From positions 1,961,545-2,025,544 of the forward strand of contig OY282385.1 in assembly GCA_958295935.1 (NCBI GenBank): a stretch of 64,000 nucleotides of DNA, read 5' to 3'. The position numbers and the translations under genes are program-made. The stretch is from an uncultured Dehalococcoidia bacterium. GTDB taxonomy: Bacteria > Chloroflexota > Dehalococcoidia > Lucifugimonadales > Lucifugimonadaceae. Below the pieces are notes generated by a model. That model saw only the letters and a program-made list of their open reading frames with translations, had not been told where the DNA came from and did no database searches. Shown here piece by piece: positions 665 to 52,417 of the stretch (positions are counted from its first letter, which is position 1; each line of letters opens with the position of its first letter).

Positions 665-1861
665 ATGAAGATCACGGCCATCGATACGTTTGTAGTAGAT
701 GCGGGTTGGCGGCCATGGGTGTTCGTTGCGGTGCGCACGGATGAAGGGCTTACGGGATATGGAGAGTGCTCGGACGGCAGAAACCCATTTGGAATAGCCG
801 CTACGGTGGGCGAGTTCGCGACGGTACTTGCAGGCCGCGACCCTCGCCCGGTCGAGGCGAACTACCACGACATGTACCGCTTGGCCAGGCAGAGCGCGGG
901 CGGCATCGCGTCGAAGGCTATCGCCGGAGTGGAATTGGCGTTGTGGGACGTAAAGGCAAAGGCTCTGGGTGTACCGGTGTACGAGCTGTTCGGCGGCCCG
1001 CTACGGAAACGGCAGAGGGTCTACTGGTCGCACTGCGGTTCCTCCAGAGCGAGAAGCCACCGCCTCATCGGGACTCCGCCCATCGATTCGATGGAGTCCT
1101 TCATCGCATTGGGCAGAGAGGTGCGAGACAGAGGGTTCAACGCGCTCAAGACGAACATCATCTTCCCGGGACCAGAAGCCAGCGTCTACTTCGGCGGCTT
1201 TGGGCCAGGCGCTACCGACCAGACGGTGTCGGTTGAAGTGCTGCGCCACGTTCAGAAGCAGATCAGCGCATTCCGTGAGGGCGCCGGAGAGAACGTCGAG
1301 ATAGCTCTGGATCTGAACTTCAACTTCAAGCCCGAGGCCGCAACCAGGATCTGCAATGCGCTGGCTTCCCACGACATGATGTGGGTCGAGATAGACATGT
1401 ACGAACCGCATGCGCTCGCAAGAATCCGCAACAGCGCGTCGATGCCGATCATGTCGGGCGAGAACCTGTTTGGAATGCGCGGCTATCGGCCGTACTTCGA
1501 GGCAGGCTCGATGGACATCGTGATGGTGGACATTCCATGGAACGGTTTCGCCGAGTCGAGGCGCATAGCGGCTATGGCGGAGAGCTTTGAACTTAACGTG
1601 GCTCCACACAACTACTACTCACATCTGGCGTCGCATATCGCGCTCAATCTGTCCGCCTGCACTCCCAACGTGCATATCATGGAGATCGACGTCGATGACG
1701 TGCCCTGGAAGGACGACCTGACCGGCGGCCCTATGGACATCGTGGAAGGCCAAGCGGCTGTGCCTGTCGAGCCGGGGTGGGGAGTTGAATTGAACGAGGA
1801 AGTTGCGGGGGAGCATGTTTGGATGCCGGGACGCGGCCCCGGCTACACCGCCGCCAGGTAA
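665..1861 (+). CDS. Enolase-superfamily enzyme, mandelate racemase / muconate lactonizing enzyme (MR/MLE, D-galactonate dehydratase-like).
   Basis: The protein MKITAIDTFVVDAGWRPWVFVAVRTDEGLTGYGEC... has the MR/MLE N-terminal capping domain and barrel. The ATG at 665 is preferred over the GTG at 575. Confidence 0.8.
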   Translation: MKITAIDTFVVDAGWRPWVFVAVRTDEGLTGYGECSDGRNPFGIAATVGEFATVLAGRDPRPVEANYHDMYRLARQSAGGIASKAIAGVELALWDVKAKALGVPVYELFGGPLRKRQRVYWSHCGSSRARSHRLIGTPPIDSMESFIALGREVRDRGFNALKTNIIFPGPEASVYFGGFGPGATDQTVSVEVLRHVQKQISAFREGAGENVEIALDLNFNFKPEAATRICNALASHDMMWVEIDMYEPHALARIRNSASMPIMSGENLFGMRGYRPYFEAGSMDIVMVDIPWNGFAESRRIAAMAESFELNVAPHNYYSHLASHIALNLSACTPNVHIMEIDVDDVPWKDDLTGGPMDIVEGQAAVPVEPGWGVELNEEVAGEHVWMPGRGPGYTAAR

Positions 1862-1926: not shown

Positions 1927-2916
1927 TTGGCGAACCAAGTAGTAGCAGTGGTCATGCCACAGGCCGGAGACAGCGAGCGGATACGTCACTTCAGCCGCGC
2001 CGCTGGTCTGGAAGACGACGTTGAATTTGTCTTTGTCGATGCCGATTCTCCGCCTGACGAGGTCGTTGCAAAATGCCTCGGCGCCAAGGCTCTCATGCCG
2101 TCCACGCGCTCTATGACCATGGAGCAGTTCGAGGAGCTTCCCGACCTTCGACATATCCAGGTGACGAGTGCGGGCACCGACTGGCTGGATAAGACGGCTC
2201 TCGCTGAGCGAGGCGTAACTGTGTCCAACAACGGCGGTGCAAACGCTCCCGCGGTCGCCGAGCACGCTATAGCCCTCATGTTCTCGGTCTACAGAAGGCT
2301 CGACAGGCAGTTCGAAAGCGTGAGGGCGATGCGCTGGGCGGACGGAGCGCGAGGCGACCTCGATGACCGTCACACTTTGGTAGGCAAGCGGGTCGGAATC
2401 GTCGGCCTGGGGCAAATCGGTTCCAGAGTCTCCAAACGGCTCGCCGGATGGGAGTGCGAAATCGTCTACTACGATTCGTTCGCATTCCCGCGGGAATATG
2501 AGCAGGAGGCCGGGGCGGCGCGCGTCTCTTTTGAAGAATTGCTCAAGACCTCAGACGTCGTCTCTCTCCACACCCCGCTCGAATCGACTACGCGCTATCT
2601 GATATCTGACCGCGAACTGGGTATGATGAAGCCGACGGCGACCCTTATCAACACTTGCCGCGGCCCGGTGGTGAACGAATCGGCATTGATTCGGGCGTTG
2701 AAGGACGGAGTGATCAAGGGCGCGGGCCTTGACGTGACCGAGGTGGAGCCCACACCGCCGGACAACCCATTGCTCGACTTGGACAACGTGGTCATTACGC
2801 CGCACCTCGCAAGCATGGCCATCGAATCGACCATCGACTCCGTTAACTTCGGCGTGCAGAACGCAGCAAGAGCCGCCAGAGGAGAAGCCCCGGAGTCGGT
2901 GGTGGCCCCGGTATGA
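1927..2916 (+). CDS. D-isomer-specific 2-hydroxyacid dehydrogenase (NAD-binding, phosphoglycerate-dehydrogenase-like).
   Basis: It contains GKRVGIVGLGQIGSRVSKRLAGWECEIVYYD (Rossmann GxGxxG), plus TCRGPVVNE and ITPHLA motifs. The start is uncertain: TTG 1927 follows GGAGGA, and ATG 1954 is the alternative. It sits next to the MR/MLE gene. Confidence 0.7.
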   Translation: MANQVVAVVMPQAGDSERIRHFSRAAGLEDDVEFVFVDADSPPDEVVAKCLGAKALMPSTRSMTMEQFEELPDLRHIQVTSAGTDWLDKTALAERGVTVSNNGGANAPAVAEHAIALMFSVYRRLDRQFESVRAMRWADGARGDLDDRHTLVGKRVGIVGLGQIGSRVSKRLAGWECEIVYYDSFAFPREYEQEAGAARVSFEELLKTSDVVSLHTPLESTTRYLISDRELGMMKPTATLINTCRGPVVNESALIRALKDGVIKGAGLDVTEVEPTPPDNPLLDLDNVVITPHLASMAIESTIDSVNFGVQNAARAARGEAPESVVAPV

Positions 2917-19364: not shown

Positions 19365-21779
19365 CTACTGGCGCTGTAAGGCCCCGAACTCTCTGGAAAG
19401 GGCGTTCAGGATGGAACGTTGAGCCTTTTCCACCTGACCGGCTGTCAGCGTGCGGCTGGGCGACTGGTAAACGAGCCTTACGGCAAGAGACTTCTTACCC
19501 TCCGGCAGATTGCTGCCCCGGTACACGTCGAACACGGTAGCGCTGGTTACCAACCTGTTGCGGCTGGCTACCCTGACGACGTCCGCAGCCGCCACGGTCT
19601 CGTCAACCACGACCGCCAAGTCCCTGGGAGATTCCGGGAACCTGATATAGGTTCGATATGCGCCGCCCTGTTGACTGGCCGAGACTGCTGATTCAAGCGA
19701 CGGCAGGTCTAGCTCGAACAGTGACACAGGACCAGAGTCGATCCCAAATGCCTCAAGTACGTGCGCCGCCACCTCGCCTACCACGCCAACGCGCAGCCCG
19801 CCAGCCGCCGGGACGGTCACCTCAGCGGCGCGCCCCGCTGCCAATGTCGCGTCCTCTACAGGCGAGAACTCCGCGGCAATTCCCATACGCTCCAGCGTAT
19901 CCTCCACCACGCCGCGCGCGTCATAGTAGTCGAGCTGTCCTCCTCCTCCGTCCCAATGCAATTCCGCGCGTGGGCCGGCCAGCGCTCCAACCGCCATTTC
20001 CCGCTCATCCGGCAGACCCTCACCGCGGTTGTGGAATACCTTCCCGGACTCGAACAGAGCTATGGGCCCGCGCCACGTGTGCAGATTGTTAGCCACGGCG
20101 TGGAGAATCCCCTCCCTGAGCGTCCTGCGGAGAACGGAATGACCGGCGGAGACTGGATTCAGAATGTGCACGAATTCCGGTGTGGAAGAGGGCAGATCCA
20201 ACCGCTCTTCACCCTCTGCCGTCGTGCCGGAATAGGTGATGATCTGTTGTAGTCCAGCCGCGGTTAGCCCGGCGCGTACGCGCCCGCGAAGATCCAACTC
20301 GGGATTTGGCGACCATGGCGGTAGATTGTCCGCATGAACCCTGAGCGGCAACTCATCGTAACCGATGATGCGCGCCACCTCCTCGCACAGGTCCTCGGGA
20401 ATGCCAACGTCCGGGCGCCAGTATGGAACCTTCACGTTCCAGCCTTCCCCGTCTGCGCTTACGGAGAACCCCAGCGACGTAAGGGTGGACTCCACCTGCG
20501 CGTCCGCAAGGCCGGCTCCCAGTACCCGGTCCAGCTTTTGGCGAGACAGGTAGACGAAATCTGTTTCATCGGCTTTGCCGGGCCATTCGTCCAGTATGCC
20601 CTTTGCGGCCTCGCCTCCCGCCACCTCCAGTATCAGCCTGGTAGCCCTGCGCAACGCCACCTCAGACAACCCGGCGCGCAGGCCCTTTTCAAAGCGAAGT
20701 GAAGCTTGGCTGGTCAGGCTAAGGCTTTGCGAGGTCCGTCGGTTATTTGATGGGTCGAAGGCCGCAGATTCCAGGAGGATATTCACGGTGCCGCCGCCGA
20801 TCTCCGTGTTAGCCCCCCCCATGACGCCGGCAAGGCCGATCGCACGCATCGGGTCGGCGATGACCAGCACGTCCGGCGACAGTTCCCTCTCCACGTCGTC
20901 CAGAGTTGTCAAACGCTCGCCCTCATTAGCGCGGCGCACCACGACGGTGTGATCGACCACGCGGTCGTAGTCGAAGGCATGAAGCGGCTGCCCCAATTCG
21001 AACATCACGTAGTTGGTGGCGTCCACCACGTTGTTGATTGGCCGCTCCCCAAGAGCGAGCAGAGCGTCCTTGAGCCATTTTGGCGAAGGGCCAATCTTCA
21101 CGCCTCTTATCACCGAAGCCGTGTAGCGGGGGCACAGGTCGCTGTCTTCTATTGCCAACCGCGCCAGATCGGCCGCGTCATCAGCGCCTGTCTCGTAATC
21201 GAGGTTCGGCTCGACCAAACGGGCGCCGGTTACCGCAGCGACCTCCCTGGCCACTCCCACGATGCCAAGGCAATCGGGCCGGTTGGGCGTAAGTTCCAAC
21301 TCCAGGATCGTGTCCCCGATCACCTGTCCTATCGGGGCGCCTAACTCCTCGTCGGTGTCGAGTACCAGGATTCCATCATGCTCGTCCCCAAGGCCGAGCT
21401 CCTTTTCGGAGCACACCATGCCTTCGGAAACGACCCCTCGGATTTTGGCGCGTTTCAGCCGTGAAGGTCTTCCGGTATAGCCGTCGATCAACTCCGCGCC
21501 CACAGATGCAAAGGCGATTTTCTGCCCGGCTGCAACGTTCGGCGCACCGCACACCACCTCTGCGACCCCGTTCCCATGGTCCACGGTGACCAGCCTGAGC
21601 CGATCAGCATGAGGGTGAGGCGACACGTCGAGCACGTGCCCAACGACCACCCCGTCCTTGTAGCCGACGCGTTCGACTTTCTCGACTTCCGTACCGGCCA
21701 TGGAGAGGCGATGCGCCAACTCAGCCGGAGAAAGATCTACCCTCACGTAATCGCGCAGCCAGGACAAGGGGACTTTCAT
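19365..21779 (-). CDS. pheT: Phenylalanine--tRNA ligase beta subunit.
   Basis: The 804-aa protein starts MKVPLSWLRDYV, with B3/B4, tRNA-binding and FDX-ACB domain patterns. Confidence 0.9.
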   Translation of the reverse strand: MKVPLSWLRDYVRVDLSPAELAHRLSMAGTEVEKVERVGYKDGVVVGHVLDVSPHPHADRLRLVTVDHGNGVAEVVCGAPNVAAGQKIAFASVGAELIDGYTGRPSRLKRAKIRGVVSEGMVCSEKELGLGDEHDGILVLDTDEELGAPIGQVIGDTILELELTPNRPDCLGIVGVAREVAAVTGARLVEPNLDYETGADDAADLARLAIEDSDLCPRYTASVIRGVKIGPSPKWLKDALLALGERPINNVVDATNYVMFELGQPLHAFDYDRVVDHTVVVRRANEGERLTTLDDVERELSPDVLVIADPMRAIGLAGVMGGANTEIGGGTVNILLESAAFDPSNNRRTSQSLSLTSQASLRFEKGLRAGLSEVALRRATRLILEVAGGEAAKGILDEWPGKADETDFVYLSRQKLDRVLGAGLADAQVESTLTSLGFSVSADGEGWNVKVPYWRPDVGIPEDLCEEVARIIGYDELPLRVHADNLPPWSPNPELDLRGRVRAGLTAAGLQQIITYSGTTAEGEERLDLPSSTPEFVHILNPVSAGHSVLRRTLREGILHAVANNLHTWRGPIALFESGKVFHNRGEGLPDEREMAVGALAGPRAELHWDGGGGQLDYYDARGVVEDTLERMGIAAEFSPVEDATLAAGRAAEVTVPAAGGLRVGVVGEVAAHVLEAFGIDSGPVSLFELDLPSLESAVSASQQGGAYRTYIRFPESPRDLAVVVDETVAAADVVRVASRNRLVTSATVFDVYRGSNLPEGKKSLAVRLVYQSPSRTLTAGQVEKAQRSILNALSREFGALQRQ

Positions 21780-39554: not shown

Positions 39555-40378
39555 CGAGTGCCAGGTCAACCGCCAGTGCCGGCGTTCTCGACCGGATAGT
39601 CGAGGCGAAACGGCTCCGCGTCGAGCAAGCTCGGAGAGACGTTCCAACCGCCAGACTCCGGGAACTGGCGGAACAGTCTCCCCCCCCTGTCTCACTGGCC
39701 AATGCCCTCGCAAACCGGCCTGGCATAGCCATGATCGCCGAGATGAAGAGGAGGGCTCCTTCCGCAGGTGAGCTTGACCTCGACATGGACCCCGCCGAGC
39801 GCGCGGGCGCATACTGCGCGGCGGGCGCTGCCGCTATATCCGTACTCACCGAGTACGATCACTTTATGGGGACTGTGGAAGACCTGACAAGGGCTAGGAG
39901 CGTGGCCGCCCGGCATGGTGTGTCGGTACTGGAGAAGGACTTTGTGTTCGACGAGTACCAGATTTGGCAGGCGCGAGCCGCAGGCGCAGACGCCATCCTG
40001 CTAATCGTAGCCATCCTGGATCCGTCGCAGTACAAAGACCTGTTCGAGCTCAGCCGCAGTCTCGGTATGGACGCGCTCGTCGAATCGTTCGACGAACAGG
40101 ACCTGGAGGTCGCGTTGTCCGCGGACCCAGAGGTCGTCGGCATCAACAACCGCAATCTCAGAACGCTCGAAACCTCTCTGGACGTGTTCGAGCGATTGGC
40201 GCCCCTCATAGGGCTTGGTAGAATCGCGGTTGCGGAAAGCGGCATGAAGAACGCCGCAGACGTGGAGCGCATGGGACGGGCCGGGGCAAAGGCAATACTC
40301 GTAGGCGAGTCTCTCATGCGCGCTCGCGGCAACGCATCTACTCTTATACAGGCTATGTCACAGGTCGACGTTCAATGA
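39551..40378 (+). CDS. trpC: Indole-3-glycerol phosphate synthase.
   Basis: It contains ...AEMKRRAPSAG...VLTE...INNRNL. The start overlaps the trpD stop (GTGA). Confidence 0.8.
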   Translation: MTSARSTASAGVLDRIVEAKRLRVEQARRDVPTARLRELAEQSPPPVSLANALANRPGIAMIAEMKRRAPSAGELDLDMDPAERAGAYCAAGAAAISVLTEYDHFMGTVEDLTRARSVAARHGVSVLEKDFVFDEYQIWQARAAGADAILLIVAILDPSQYKDLFELSRSLGMDALVESFDEQDLEVALSADPEVVGINNRNLRTLETSLDVFERLAPLIGLGRIAVAESGMKNAADVERMGRAGAKAILVGESLMRARGNASTLIQAMSQVDVQ

Positions 40379-49325: not shown

Positions 49326-50480
49326 CTATGCGGCTTCGACGGTGTGCTCCTCGATGTAATCGAAGTTTATGTCTTCGCCAAGTCCCGGGCGGGTCGGCAT
49401 CGGGATGTACCCTTGGGAGTCCATAGGGTCGATGATGCTGTTCAGGTAGCCGGGAGTTTCGTCGTAGTCGATGAAGGGATGCAGCAACCCGCGCTCGTAC
49501 CATCGCCCGTTGTACATCGCTCCCAGTACGTTCAGATTTCCAGACCCTCCGCCGTGGATCTCACACGCCAGGCCGTGAGACTCGGCAAGATGCGCCACCT
49601 TCATGCTAGGCCCGATCCCGCCCACGTCCATCACGCCGGTACGGGTGATGTCGGACGCGCCCCGCACTATCCACTCAGCGCGCGTGCGAAACTTGCCTTG
49701 GGCCATCTCCGGACCCAGCACGGGCATCTTCAACTGATTCGCCAGCCACACGTAAGAGGAGGTCGAGTGTTCGTCCATCGGCTCCTCGTACCAGTAATAA
49801 TCCAGTTCTTCCAGTTCTCGGCCTATGTACCAGGCGTCCTCCCGGCTATACCAGTGGTTGGCGTCCAGCATGAGGGGCAGGTCCGGCCCCACGGCTTCCC
49901 GGACGGCTGCACACGCCTTGACGTCCATCTTCGGGTCTGGCGCCCAGGACACCGGCGGCATCCAGGTGTGCAGTTTGATGGCCTGATAGCCGCGATTGAC
50001 GAGCCATTCTGCAAATCTGCCGTAGTCCTCGGGCGTGGCGAGGCCGCCCGCCATTTCGTCGCCGCACATCGTGGAGCCGTAGGCAGGCACCCTGTCCCGA
50101 TAGCCCCCTAGCAGTTTCCAGACCGGCAGGCCCAACTTGCGGCCCGCGAGGTCCCACAGGGCCATCTCGACGGGCGCCAGTACCCGGTCGCTGAGCAACT
50201 CGCCTGAACCCCGCTGACGCTTGTAGAGGCCCTGCCAGATGAGCTCTCTGTCATGTGGGTCGCGACCTACAAGCTCAGGCCTGACGAACTGGTCGATTAC
50301 CGGCTGTCTGAGGGAGGACGGAGATCCGAAGCAATATCCCGCCGAGCCGTCATCAGCGGTCACGGTCAGGAGCGCCTGCTGCGCGTCGTGTTCCGGGCCG
50401 GGGTGGCTGTGGCCCTCGCTGTCATTCACCTGTTTCGACTTATAAGTGAAAACCTGTACCTGGATGTCTGTGATCTTCAT
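49326..50480 (-). CDS. Enolase-superfamily MR/MLE enzyme (sugar-acid dehydratase-like).
   Basis: MKITDIQVQVF...LDANHWYS...HGGGSGNLNVL fits the family. The ATG at 50478-50480 is preferred over the track start 50561. Confidence 0.7.
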   Translation of the reverse strand: MKITDIQVQVFTYKSKQVNDSEGHSHPGPEHDAQQALLTVTADDGSAGYCFGSPSSLRQPVIDQFVRPELVGRDPHDRELIWQGLYKRQRGSGELLSDRVLAPVEMALWDLAGRKLGLPVWKLLGGYRDRVPAYGSTMCGDEMAGGLATPEDYGRFAEWLVNRGYQAIKLHTWMPPVSWAPDPKMDVKACAAVREAVGPDLPLMLDANHWYSREDAWYIGRELEELDYYWYEEPMDEHSTSSYVWLANQLKMPVLGPEMAQGKFRTRAEWIVRGASDITRTGVMDVGGIGPSMKVAHLAESHGLACEIHGGGSGNLNVLGAMYNGRWYERGLLHPFIDYDETPGYLNSIIDPMDSQGYIPMPTRPGLGEDINFDYIEEHTVEAA

Positions 50481-50761
50481 GTTTGGCTCCGGCTGATCTT
50501 TTTGATGGAATAGCGGCATGATAAACCGACGACGTGCGGCCGTGGCAGAGTTGCACGTCATTATTCCACCCCCGCCATCCCCATCTCCGGCCAGGAACTT
50601 CAGGGCGGTCTGCTAAAAAACGCGGACAGGGCAGTATCGACAGATACCCCTCTCTTGCACCACTTGACGCAGCGCGGTTTTCGATCAAGGATCGATCTGA
50701 CGTGTCAACTGATAATCCTGATCCGCTTCCTTCTTCTCTCACTACGACATGGCGGTCTGCA

Positions 50762-51790
50762 ATGGGGGATTCCGCTCTGTATTCAGCAGACGCCTTCACC
50801 GCGCTTGCTCAGATGCCGGACGAGTCCATTGACTGTGTATGGACTGACCCGCCCTACAGGCTCTCGAACGGGGGCATAACCTGCGTAGCGGGCAGAAGGG
50901 TTAGCGTGGATAAGGGGGATTGGGACGCAAGCGGGGGGCTGAAGGCGGATTACAAGTTCAACTTGAAGTGGACCGCCGAATGCCGACGAGTTCTGAAACC
51001 TGCCGGAACGATTTGGGTATCCGGCACTTTGCACGTCTACCCGATCATCGGGGTAGCCCTGTTGGAAAACGGTTTTCGGCTGCTGAATGACATCATCTGG
51101 GAGAAGCCAAATCCCCCGCCGAATCTGGGATGCAGAACCTTCACCCATTCCACGGAAATTGTGCTGTGGGCGGCCAAGATGCCAAAAGGAAGCCGGCACA
51201 AGTACAAATTCAATTACCAGGAAATGAAGCGCGAGAACGGCGGCAAGCAGATGAAAACCGTCTGGCGCTTAACAGCCCCGGGCCGCGCTGAAAAACGATT
51301 CGGTAAACACCCGACTCAGAAGCCCGTCGCGCTGGTGGACCGCTGCCTGCGCGCCAGCACAGACCCCGGCGACGTGGTGCTTGACCCGTTCACGGGATCC
51401 GGCAGCACAGGCGTCGCTGCTCTCAAGATTGGCCGACGTTTTATCGGCGTCGAGTCTGAAGAAGAGTACGTGTCCATAGCCAGGATGCGCCTTGAAGAAA
51501 CGGCGGCGCTTGTTGCCCCCCCCCCCGATTATTCCTGCAAATTCCATCAACTCACCCCACCTGCGTACGCAATCCTCAGCGCCCAATTCCAAATCCTTCC
51601 CTGTACGCCGGCTGGGGCGACGGAATCCGACCAGGCTCTTCGAGAAGATGGAAAGCTGAAGTATGTCACCGCGCGACACCCGGACCGGCAGCGTCATGGA
51701 ACTTATGGCGCTTCCGGCATTGGAGATGGGAGGCTACAAAGTCCAACGCAACGTGGAAGTCGGAACCAGATTCGATGTATCGCGGCATAG
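50762..51790 (+). CDS. Beta-class DNA methyltransferase (N4-cytosine or N6-adenine). The 3' end contains an 11-C homopolymer, so the true C-terminus is uncertain.
   Basis: Motif IV (VWTDPPYRLSN) precedes motif I (VLDPFTGSGSTGVAA). A C11 tract lies at 51516-51526. As read, the ORF overlaps the next gene by 95 nt. One fewer C would stop it at about 51659. Confidence 0.7.
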   Translation: MGDSALYSADAFTALAQMPDESIDCVWTDPPYRLSNGGITCVAGRRVSVDKGDWDASGGLKADYKFNLKWTAECRRVLKPAGTIWVSGTLHVYPIIGVALLENGFRLLNDIIWEKPNPPPNLGCRTFTHSTEIVLWAAKMPKGSRHKYKFNYQEMKRENGGKQMKTVWRLTAPGRAEKRFGKHPTQKPVALVDRCLRASTDPGDVVLDPFTGSGSTGVAALKIGRRFIGVESEEEYVSIARMRLEETAALVAPPPDYSCKFHQLTPPAYAILSAQFQILPCTPAGATESDQALREDGKLKYVTARHPDRQRHGTYGASGIGDGRLQSPTQRGSRNQIRCIAA

Positions 51791-52085
51791 GGTGGACACG
51801 TGCGCTGAGGACTCGGCCGGCCGCGTTTACCTCATCTCGATGAAGTGGCAGCAGACGCAGGGAACCGCCGAGCAGAAGATACCGTTCGAGGTCATCTGCC
51901 TTGCAGACGTTCTCTTGAAGAACGAGAAGTTCTATAAAGCCTACCTGGTACTCGGAGGCGTAGGGTGGAAATACAAGGATTTCTACCTGCGCGGCGGCCT
52001 GAACCCCTACTTGATGAACGCGGATATGGTAAGCATAGTTTCCTTGGACGAATTCGTCAGCCGCGCTAATCAGGGCCGCCTCTAG
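51696..52085 (+). CDS. Putative small restriction endonuclease (PD-(D/E)xK-like), partner of the upstream methyltransferase; tentative.
   Basis: MELMALPALEMGGYKV...VDTCAEDSAGRVYLISMKWQ gives a D...(E/D)...K arrangement. The local GC is low (about 52%), and it lies immediately after a methyltransferase. Confidence 0.3.
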   Translation: MELMALPALEMGGYKVQRNVEVGTRFDVSRHRVDTCAEDSAGRVYLISMKWQQTQGTAEQKIPFEVICLADVLLKNEKFYKAYLVLGGVGWKYKDFYLRGGLNPYLMNADMVSIVSLDEFVSRANQGRL

Positions 52086-52138
52086 CAGACGCCATCGGGT
52101 GAACGGGCGCCCGCCTACCCGTTCTTACTCCGCGCTGC

Positions 52139-52417
52139 TTAGGCGCGTACCTCGAACGGTCCCTTTCCCGTATGTGGGCGCGACCAGTCGAGGTTCACCG
52201 ATCTGACGTTAGCCCCGGCCGGTCCTTTCCTGAGCTCCGCCGTCAATGCATCCAGGGCTGCTGCGCTTCCGGCAGCGGAGACCTCCACGGAGCCGTTTGG
52301 CAGGTTGCGAACGTAGCCCGACAGGCCCAGACGGCTAGCCGCGCGGAACACGAAGAATCTGTAACCCACGCCCTGCACCCGGCCCGATACTATGGCAGCG
52401 AAACCGAGGCTCATCAT
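52139..52417 (-). CDS. acyP: Acylphosphatase.
   Basis: AIVSGRVQGVGYRFF...GYVRNLPNGSVEV is the acylphosphatase signature. Confidence 0.7.
   Translation of the reverse strand: MMSLGFAAIVSGRVQGVGYRFFVFRAASRLGLSGYVRNLPNGSVEVSAAGSAAALDALTAELRKGPAGANVRSVNLDWSRPHTGKGPFEVRA

Follow-up and report, generated by a model that had tools for sequence, protein, structure and literature searches.

A run of 11 consecutive C residues lies near the 3' end of a DNA methyltransferase gene and a short distance upstream of a small nuclease gene in the stretch of uncultured Dehalococcoidia DNA analyzed here (contig OY282385.1; the window, 64,000 nucleotides (nt) long with a guanine-plus-cytosine (GC) content of 60.7%, within which all positions are counted). 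The locus raises the question of whether this tract is a sequencing error, a harmless repeat or a genetic switch and, in the last case, which of the two genes it acts on. In this study, the tract and its downstream reading frames were analyzed in the window and in related operons. On balance, and with modest confidence, we judge C11 to be an allele of a hypermutable poly-C tract that is conserved in a Dehalococcoidia clade and lies where a Type II methyltransferase gene adjoins the gene of its endonuclease. The position of the tract and the composition of the frames behind it suggest that it probably tunes restriction without affecting the catalytic part of the methylase. Its effect would most likely fall on the translation of the nuclease and on the methylase tail, with methylation persisting.

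Position of the tract in the operon

The run, which reads GTTG-CCCCCCCCCCC-GATT with its flanks, contains exactly 11 C and is the only homopolymer of at least 9 bases in the window; the next longest are two C8 runs, followed by four 7-base runs. At 60.7% GC, 0.05-0.09 C runs of at least 11 would be expected per 64 kb. The two C8 runs (20813-20820 and 39680-39687), the next longest G/C homopolymers, lie within uninterrupted open reading frames (ORFs) of 804 and 275 codons, respectively, and the assembly is therefore not full of homopolymer frameshifts.

The methyltransferase matched PF01555 (N6/N4 DNA methylase) with an E-value of 5.9e-55 over residues 99-316 of the longest ORF (nt 50828-51481), and positions 1-219 of the 221 in the profile were covered. 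Motif IV (DPPY, 50846-50857) lies upstream of motif I (DPFTGSGST, 51383-51409), which is the beta-class order. Moreover, the PADLOC model for Type II methyltransferases, PDLC03371 (MTase_II), was matched (E 1.5e-84) up to position 256 of 260, corresponding to residue 248 counted from ATG 50762 and lying just upstream of the tract, and the PPP encoded by the tract falls at about residues 252-254 on the same count. The tract is thus located just past the catalytic domain. The nearest solved structure was CcrM (6pbd; residues 14-261, E 1.1e-53). The CcrM equivalog of NCBIfam, NF050803, gave 219.7 bits, well short of the cut-off of 830, from a match confined to positions 6-252 of the 350-position profile. 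The motif order DPPY ... FxGxG is common to the window enzyme and the CcrM/HinfI-type beta-class adenine methyltransferases (PDB 6pbd); however, the C-terminal DNA-binding domain of CcrM is absent from the window protein, and CcrM is an orphan enzyme whereas the window methyltransferase is paired with a nuclease.

The N-terminal alignment showed that P.W.S..G..ALY is conserved in homologues upstream of ATG 50762, and the true methyltransferase start is therefore probably upstream of this codon. GTG 50702, which has AAGGA 10 nt upstream, is perhaps a plausible start, and the start of the longest ORF, GTG 50534, is unlikely to be the real one. The proteins read from ATG 50762 and from GTG 50534 had no exact entry in the public protein collection, in which the window nuclease has one; two queries linked the nuclease to no contig.

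The second gene encodes a candidate restriction endonuclease. Its homologues are 140 amino acids (aa) long and conserve the N-terminus MSPR(D/N)TRTG, so that its start is placed at ATG 51663, 137 nt beyond the end of the tract. A PDB sequence search and PADLOC gave no match to the nuclease, and a fold search recovered the generic PD-(D/E)XK fold only. Judged by its predicted domains, the methyltransferase with this adjoining, separately encoded PD-(D/E)XK nuclease is a Type II restriction-modification pair. The earlier note on this DNA, which had recognized restriction-modification genes and a C11 run (51516-51526) after methyltransferase motif I, was right on these points, and the run also lies past motif IV. 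It had placed the downstream start at 51696; with ATG 51663, the 95-nt overlap that it gave for 11 C becomes 128 nt, and its 36-nt gap for 10 C becomes 3 nt.

Length of the tract in close and distant relatives

Members of single 90%-identity protein clusters differed in the length of their poly-proline and in the frame of their tails. The DNA of five members of one such cluster (L161-L165, from four sample accessions and one 3.57-Mb contig of a separate assembly) was compared. The methyltransferase-nuclease pair was present in all five, and the flanking genes were shared by four. Their flanks were 96-100% identical and their tracts had five different lengths (Table 1), which is the length variation expected of a simple-sequence-repeat contingency locus. 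In particular, L164 and L165, with flanks 99.6% and 100% identical, differed by 20 C, and L161 and L163, with flanks 98.6% and 99.5% identical, differed by 16 C. Base-calling noise does not produce differences of this size, 16-20 nt, between loci that are otherwise nearly identical. Among the five, a tract length with remainder 1 on division by 3 puts the canonical stop 3 nt before the nuclease, and the other lengths read into the nuclease gene. Among close relatives the tract is thus free to lengthen and shorten, and over all the related loci it spans 7-32 nt. As for the surroundings, the pair lies beside a DndB-family gene in L161 (156-1229), and beside DUF6996/DUF6997 and a second N6/N4 methyltransferase in L162-L165, which hints that the pair may move within defence-gene neighbourhoods.

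With the nuclease as query, 80 genomic loci from different species were fetched. In 35 of these the methyltransferase is directly upstream; nearly all are Dehalococcoidia metagenome-assembled genomes (MAGs), and two are labelled Gammaproteobacteria. At the tract position, PPP to P10 was found in many of the methyltransferases closest to that of the window, with unrelated arginine-rich tails behind it; where the prolines are absent, the homologues terminate in a brief conserved motif, [ST]RL[LF][ED]. A pure C run (an interrupted tract would read, for example, CCCTCCCACCC) was found in 18 of the 35 operons, 4-8 nt past the methyltransferase core, with lengths of 9, 11 (four loci), 12, 14 (two), 15 (two), 18, 19, 20, 23, 24, 25 (two) and 31. 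Across species, therefore, the tract is maintained at the same site, as in a contingency locus. Furthermore, all homopolymers of at least 9 bases in 233 kb of related loci were this poly-C tract.

In a tree of the methyltransferase core, tract-bearing loci were spread throughout and tract-less ones were nested among them, which suggests that the tract may be old or ancestral and was lost several times. Some losses removed the whole tail (L026 and L037), and L023 retains a decayed tract, CCCCCTCCCCC. Short tails of 3-10 residues occur naturally, for example in the homologues L037 and L026. The nuclease ORF was intact in 40 of 40 loci, whatever the frame state. Selection of a poly-proline linker at the protein level was dismissed on two grounds: the runs consist of C only, with no mixture of CCN codons, and their lengths vary by non-multiples of three.

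A second type of operon was found in L166-L168, in which the same methyltransferase family and a poly-C tract are followed by a MutH/Sau3AI-like nuclease (PF02976). The frames of this operon give a fusion of 543-567 aa, a stop 2 nt before the nuclease start, or a stop just after that start. L168 also has a G11 run (1198-1208) between two Uma2-family (PF05685) genes beside the methylase-MutH fusion locus, which could be another hypermutable tract.

Beyond these operons, about 120 loci of more distant nuclease homologues (52-61% identity) in genomes and metagenomes had no tract and usually no such adjacent methyltransferase. The metagenome scan with the nuclease alignment, which reached only distant relatives of 52-61% identity, serves as a negative control only. 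These distant PDDEXK_11 homologues (L038-L160, 52-61% identity) come from many phyla, and most have flanks, as far as fetched, without this methyltransferase family. The order is reversed in L043, L047 and L089, where the methyltransferase follows the nuclease, and L046 has a C10 run shortly beyond the nuclease stop, 426 nt from the start of that gene, with a non-adjacent methyltransferase about 860 nt upstream.

Reading frames between the tract and the nuclease gene

When tract lengths of 7-14 C were modelled in the window, length change altered the frame, as in a simple-sequence-repeat contingency locus, with three stop outcomes. With 10 or 13 C the methyltransferase ends in ...TRLFEKMES at TGA 51657-51659, which is followed by AGT and the nuclease ATG; with the assembled 11 C it stops at 51788-51790, 128 nt of it overlapping the nuclease gene; and with 12 C it stops at 51841-51843. 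The two non-canonical length classes would thus carry ribosomes past the nuclease start, with stops 125-178 nt inside the nuclease gene. A stop within a few nucleotides of the next start, as in translationally coupled pairs, occurs in one frame only, that of 10 or 13 C. None of the modelled lengths truncated the catalytic domain.

The stop-NNN-start junction, in which the first base of the stop is at -6, was conserved in 9 of the 12 tract-less loci listed; in the others the stop begins 2 (L020), 7 (L013) and 13 nt (L006) before the nuclease start. One frame of almost every tract-bearing locus offers this junction as well. Among the tract-bearing loci, 4-5 of 19 were assembled in the canonical frame (L004, L014, L028 and L031, with L016 as a variant junction), and about 14, including the window, were not. 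The addition or removal of a single base is enough to bring back the stop at -6 in each locus assembled out of frame, and upstream through the tract the canonical tail ORF has stayed open. Moreover, most tails keep RL[LF][ED], with synonymous codons differing between loci. The window tail carries TRLFE (51627-51641), equivalent [ST]RL[LF][ED] tails occur in L001-L035, and the motif is absent from the natural tail-less homologues L026, L037, L027 and L035. From these patterns, the canonical frame is apparently still under selection in genomes assembled out of frame.

The alternative frames gave a further signal. Between the tract and the nuclease start, 0 off-frame stops were found in 1710 nt of 18 tract-bearing loci, both alternative frames included, against 30.8 (standard deviation 5.0) expected from synonymous resampling and 46.1 (standard deviation 5.0) from codon permutation, and zero was reached in 0 of 2000 simulations. 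The 11 tract-less loci, by comparison, had 17 off-frame stops against 18.9 expected, with no depletion. L031 and L016 were left out of this set for technical reasons; the former has one off-frame stop, and the latter has one frame full of stops. In the window, all three frames of the tail are stop-free ahead of TGA 51657-51659. According to the 'ambush' or hidden-stop hypothesis, off-frame stops are favoured, so that frameshifted translation ends early. The present case also concerns selection on stops in non-coding frames, but its sign is reversed, and off-frame stops appear to have been purged (0 versus about 31). Taken together, the stop-free frames, the canonical stop that one base restores and the intact nuclease show, at the level of predicted translation, that all three frames would really be used in tract-bearing lineages and that it would matter for ribosomes to stay on the message as far as the nuclease start.

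In the mechanism proposed here, slipped-strand mispairing during replication would shift the frame reversibly. The methyltransferase would be active in every frame, because natural homologues without a tail exist. What would be switched is its C-terminal tail with RL[LF][ED], together with the mode of nuclease translation. In the canonical frame, ribosomes would re-initiate at the nuclease after termination, and in the other two frames passing ribosomes would read through the nuclease start. Our best guess is that the canonical frame would allow strong restriction and the two others a weaker one, and the result would be a restriction-only phase switch in which unmethylated DNA is never exposed.

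Much of what the earlier note had proposed is consistent with these results. Its frame arithmetic, with about 90 further codons for 11 C and a stop at about 51659 for 10 C, agrees with the modelled stops (51788-51790 and 51657-51659), and the slipped-strand behaviour that it suggested was recovered in relatives, with recurrence in 18 of 35 operons and differences of up to 20 nt between flanks 99.6-100% identical. It had held that homologues lacking a homopolymer at this position would speak against the idea, and 18 of 35 related operons were found to carry the tract. Its proposal that the tract toggles both the methyltransferase C-terminus and the coupling to the nuclease fits the conserved stop-NNN-start junction and the open frames that occur only with a tract, the effect on the nuclease being predicted from these features. 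A classical ON/OFF switch of the methyltransferase, by contrast, did not stand, as the tract lies past the whole catalytic domain and near-tail-less homologues exist.

The surroundings of the operon add the following. GC content over 50250-52250 is 56-58% in the operon and 60-64% in its flanks; this mild dip was too small to support a recent transfer. A scan for promoters and terminators gave nothing informative. By eye, the translations upstream are a branched-chain aminotransferase-like ORF and an enolase-superfamily ORF, and that downstream is an acylphosphatase-like ORF; these flanking genes look like housekeeping genes.

Table 1. Features of the operon in the window and poly-C tracts of related loci discussed in the text
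Locus	Feature	Positions	Strand	Tract	Basis
Window	Methyltransferase gene as assembled, start uncertain	50702..51790	+	C11	ORF list, PF01555 match, N-terminal homologue alignment
Window	Complete catalytic domain, predicted beta-class N6/N4 DNA methyltransferase	50828..51481	+		PF01555; DPPY and DPFTGSGST inside
Window	Poly-C tract, putative hypermutable element	51516..51526	+	C11	Same site C9-C31 in 18 related loci, C7-C28 in near-identical strains
Window	Canonical-frame methyltransferase tail, ...IIPANSINSPHLRTQSSAPNSKSFPVRRLGRRNPTRLFEKMES then TGA 51657-51659	51527..51659	+	Read only with C10 or C13	Length modelling
Window	Junction TGA-AGT-ATG (methyltransferase stop, 3 nt, nuclease start)	51657..51665	+		Length modelling; junction conserved in relatives
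Window	Overlap, methyltransferase ribosomes predicted in another frame of the nuclease gene	51663..51790	+	C11	Length modelling
Window	Restriction endonuclease candidate, 140 aa, family PDDEXK_11	51663..52085	+		Homologues of 140 aa with conserved N-terminus
L161	Poly-C tract			C28
L162	Poly-C tract			C22
L163	Poly-C tract			C12
L164	Poly-C tract			C27
L165	Poly-C tract			C7
L166	Poly-C tract	2801-2820		C20
L167	Poly-C tract	1710-1741		C32
L168	Poly-C tract	2838-2856		C19

Competing explanations and biological meaning

A miscall of one base is possible, though we regard it with some doubt: the true length would be 10 C, the operon would be canonical, and no switching would occur in this organism. 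One base fewer does restore TGA-AGT-ATG together with the conserved tail, the absence of the methyltransferase (two starts tried) from a protein collection that holds the nuclease would fit a gene flagged as frameshifted, and many related genomes are long-read MAGs, in which runs of at least 10 are error-prone. However, out-of-frame states also occur in contigs whose names have the style of short-read assemblers (L001 C14, L007 C9, L012 C15, L163 C12 and L164 C27), a miscall does not explain why near-identical loci differ by 16-20 nt, the lack of off-frame stops indicates that the other frames are translated in the lineage, and the two C8 runs of the window leave their ORFs unbroken. Moreover, a miscall would alter the state of one copy only and not the nature of the element. 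Rather unlikely, in our estimate, is a tolerated mutational hot spot without adaptive switching, in which the tract lies in a linker that tolerates frameshifts, the methyltransferase is complete, the nuclease has its own ribosome-binding site, and the open frames evolved merely as damage control against polarity. In its favour, frame states are near one third canonical, and the tract or the whole tail was lost without visible harm in several lineages (L026, L037 and L002, with the decay in L023); every frame also looks workable in the MutH-type operon, and ribosome-binding-site strength is equal with and without the tract. A neutral run should nevertheless shrink or become interrupted, whereas uninterrupted C runs that reach 31-32 nt are retained at one site in species with methyltransferase cores 25-35% different, and the 233 kb of related DNA, intergenic regions included, has no other run of at least 9. 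The tract also lies exactly at the methylase/nuclease junction in two operon architectures.

We attach a low probability to an action at the level of RNA or transcription, in place of a heritable switch, that sets a low ratio of nuclease to methylase. The candidates are RNA polymerase slippage on the C run, slippage of the proline transfer RNA (tRNA-Pro) on CCC-C, which would mix the three frames from any DNA length, and a G run in the template strand (a G-quadruplex or a stable rC:dG hybrid) that would lower transcription into the nuclease gene to an extent that depends on tract length. CCC-C is known as a site of +1 slippage, ribosomes stall on poly-proline, and transcriptional slippage is more likely on long homopolymers. 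Tracts of 20-32 nt are far beyond the need of a three-state DNA switch, all three frames are open, as simultaneous use would require, and the DNA frame states look unconstrained. On the other hand, transcriptional slippage is best documented on A/T runs, and alleles of C7-C12 are too short for a quadruplex; besides, such a mechanism is compatible with a DNA-level switch, and both could act together. The explanation to which we give least credence, and which appears very improbable, is a classical phase-variable methyltransferase of the phasevarion type, in which the frameshift inactivates the enzyme and alters methylation genome-wide. Homopolymers in Type I, III and IIG methyltransferase genes act in this way (PMC5909438, PMC7383803, PMC4889913), and the frameshift in the window does swap about 45 residues and drop the conserved C-terminal motif. 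Nevertheless, the tract lies past every catalytic motif and past the end of the family profile, natural homologues without the tail exist, and a nuclease is intact downstream in 40 of 40 loci, so that methylation OFF alone would be self-destructive; as far as the sequence can tell, the repeat does not switch the methyltransferase ON and OFF.

Several observations weigh against the conserved switch preferred here. The canonical share of 4-5 in 19 is not far from one third, the value expected of frames that are irrelevant at sampling. Shine-Dalgarno strength upstream of the nuclease did not differ between tract-bearing and tract-less loci (p = 0.91), and independent initiation at the nuclease could therefore be possible in every frame; the values ranged from -3 to -11 kcal/mol across loci, and that of the window, -4.1, was among the weakest. 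RNA folding around the nuclease start revealed no sequestering structure (z = -0.84 versus shuffled sequences). The MutH-type operon suggests a better fit to ribosomes that reach the nuclease start in every frame than to a clean OFF state. Furthermore, the direction and size of the nuclease effect are predicted from sequence, long homopolymer lengths are not to be trusted in the many related assemblies that are long-read MAGs, and a one-base miscall of a true C10 is possible in the window. TTG nuclease starts occurred in 4 of 19 tract-bearing and 0 of 14 tract-less loci, numbers too small to test.

Repeat-driven phase variation has been documented for Type I, III and IIG and for some Helicobacter Type II systems (PMC5909438, PMC7383803, PMC4889913, PMC3936762, PMC4209511; reviewed in PMC12707154). 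The present tract resembles those of the phase-variable Type III mod and Type I hsd genes (PMC5909438, PMC7383803) in that slippage in an in-gene repeat shifts the frame and in that a conserved site has a strain-variable length. However, the coding-region repeats of those genes truncate the methyltransferase and switch methylation ON and OFF, mostly in host-adapted pathogens, whereas the present tract is post-catalytic, at the nuclease boundary of a two-gene Type II system, in uncultured environmental Dehalococcoidia. The Type IIG enzyme Cj0031 of Campylobacter jejuni (poly-G; PMC4889913) and the Type II systems of Helicobacter pylori (PMC3936762, PMC4209511) share with it a G/C homopolymer and a Type II-class function, and the methylase-nuclease fusion formed in one frame by the MutH-type L166 and L168 adds to this resemblance. 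In those systems the frameshift abolishes the whole enzyme or one gene. In the present operons, by contrast, no frame affects the methyltransferase core, tracts attain much greater lengths (up to 32), and the tail is open in all three frames. Translational coupling is a general operon feature and has been discussed in the context of restriction-modification control (PMC12707154); the canonical frame shows the same stop-NNN-start arrangement, conserved in the clade, but here a hypermutable upstream tract could engage or bypass the coupling, an arrangement that we have not found described. In the literature searched, the coverage of which was incomplete, we likewise found phase variation described neither for Dehalococcoidia nor for Chloroflexota, and no account of a repeat located where a methylase gene meets its nuclease gene. 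The principle of the switch is familiar, and the apparent novelty lies in its post-catalytic junction position, in the group of hosts, in the lengths that the tract reaches and in the three-frame tail without stops.

More tentatively, the poly-C tract and the stop-free three-frame tail may form a dedicated device that uncouples restriction from modification, with methylation constant, in two or more nuclease families. The termination point of the methyltransferase relative to the nuclease start would then set restriction on or off, or its level, heritably through DNA slippage, and switching within a cell might be possible through polymerase or tRNA-Pro slippage on the C run. There are also practical consequences. 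A region wholly free of off-frame stops, as found behind the tract, is an uncommon but easily recognized mark of three-frame translation, by which similar switches elsewhere could be sought. Annotators, meanwhile, will label such methyltransferases as frameshifted pseudogenes, and polishing tools may 'correct' the tract.

In conclusion, repeat-driven phase variation of restriction-modification systems has been seen as a trait of host-adapted pathogens that usually destroys the methyltransferase or the whole enzyme. Here, the element is conserved in many environmental Dehalococcoidia species; it spares the methyltransferase, and its sole effect would be on how ribosomes are passed on to the nuclease gene. 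If restriction alone is indeed modulated, the arrangement would avoid self-cleavage when methylation lapses, and a population would hedge between the blocking of phages and the uptake of foreign DNA. The tract could then be a self-safe phase switch of defence in free-living, uncultured Dehalococcoidia.

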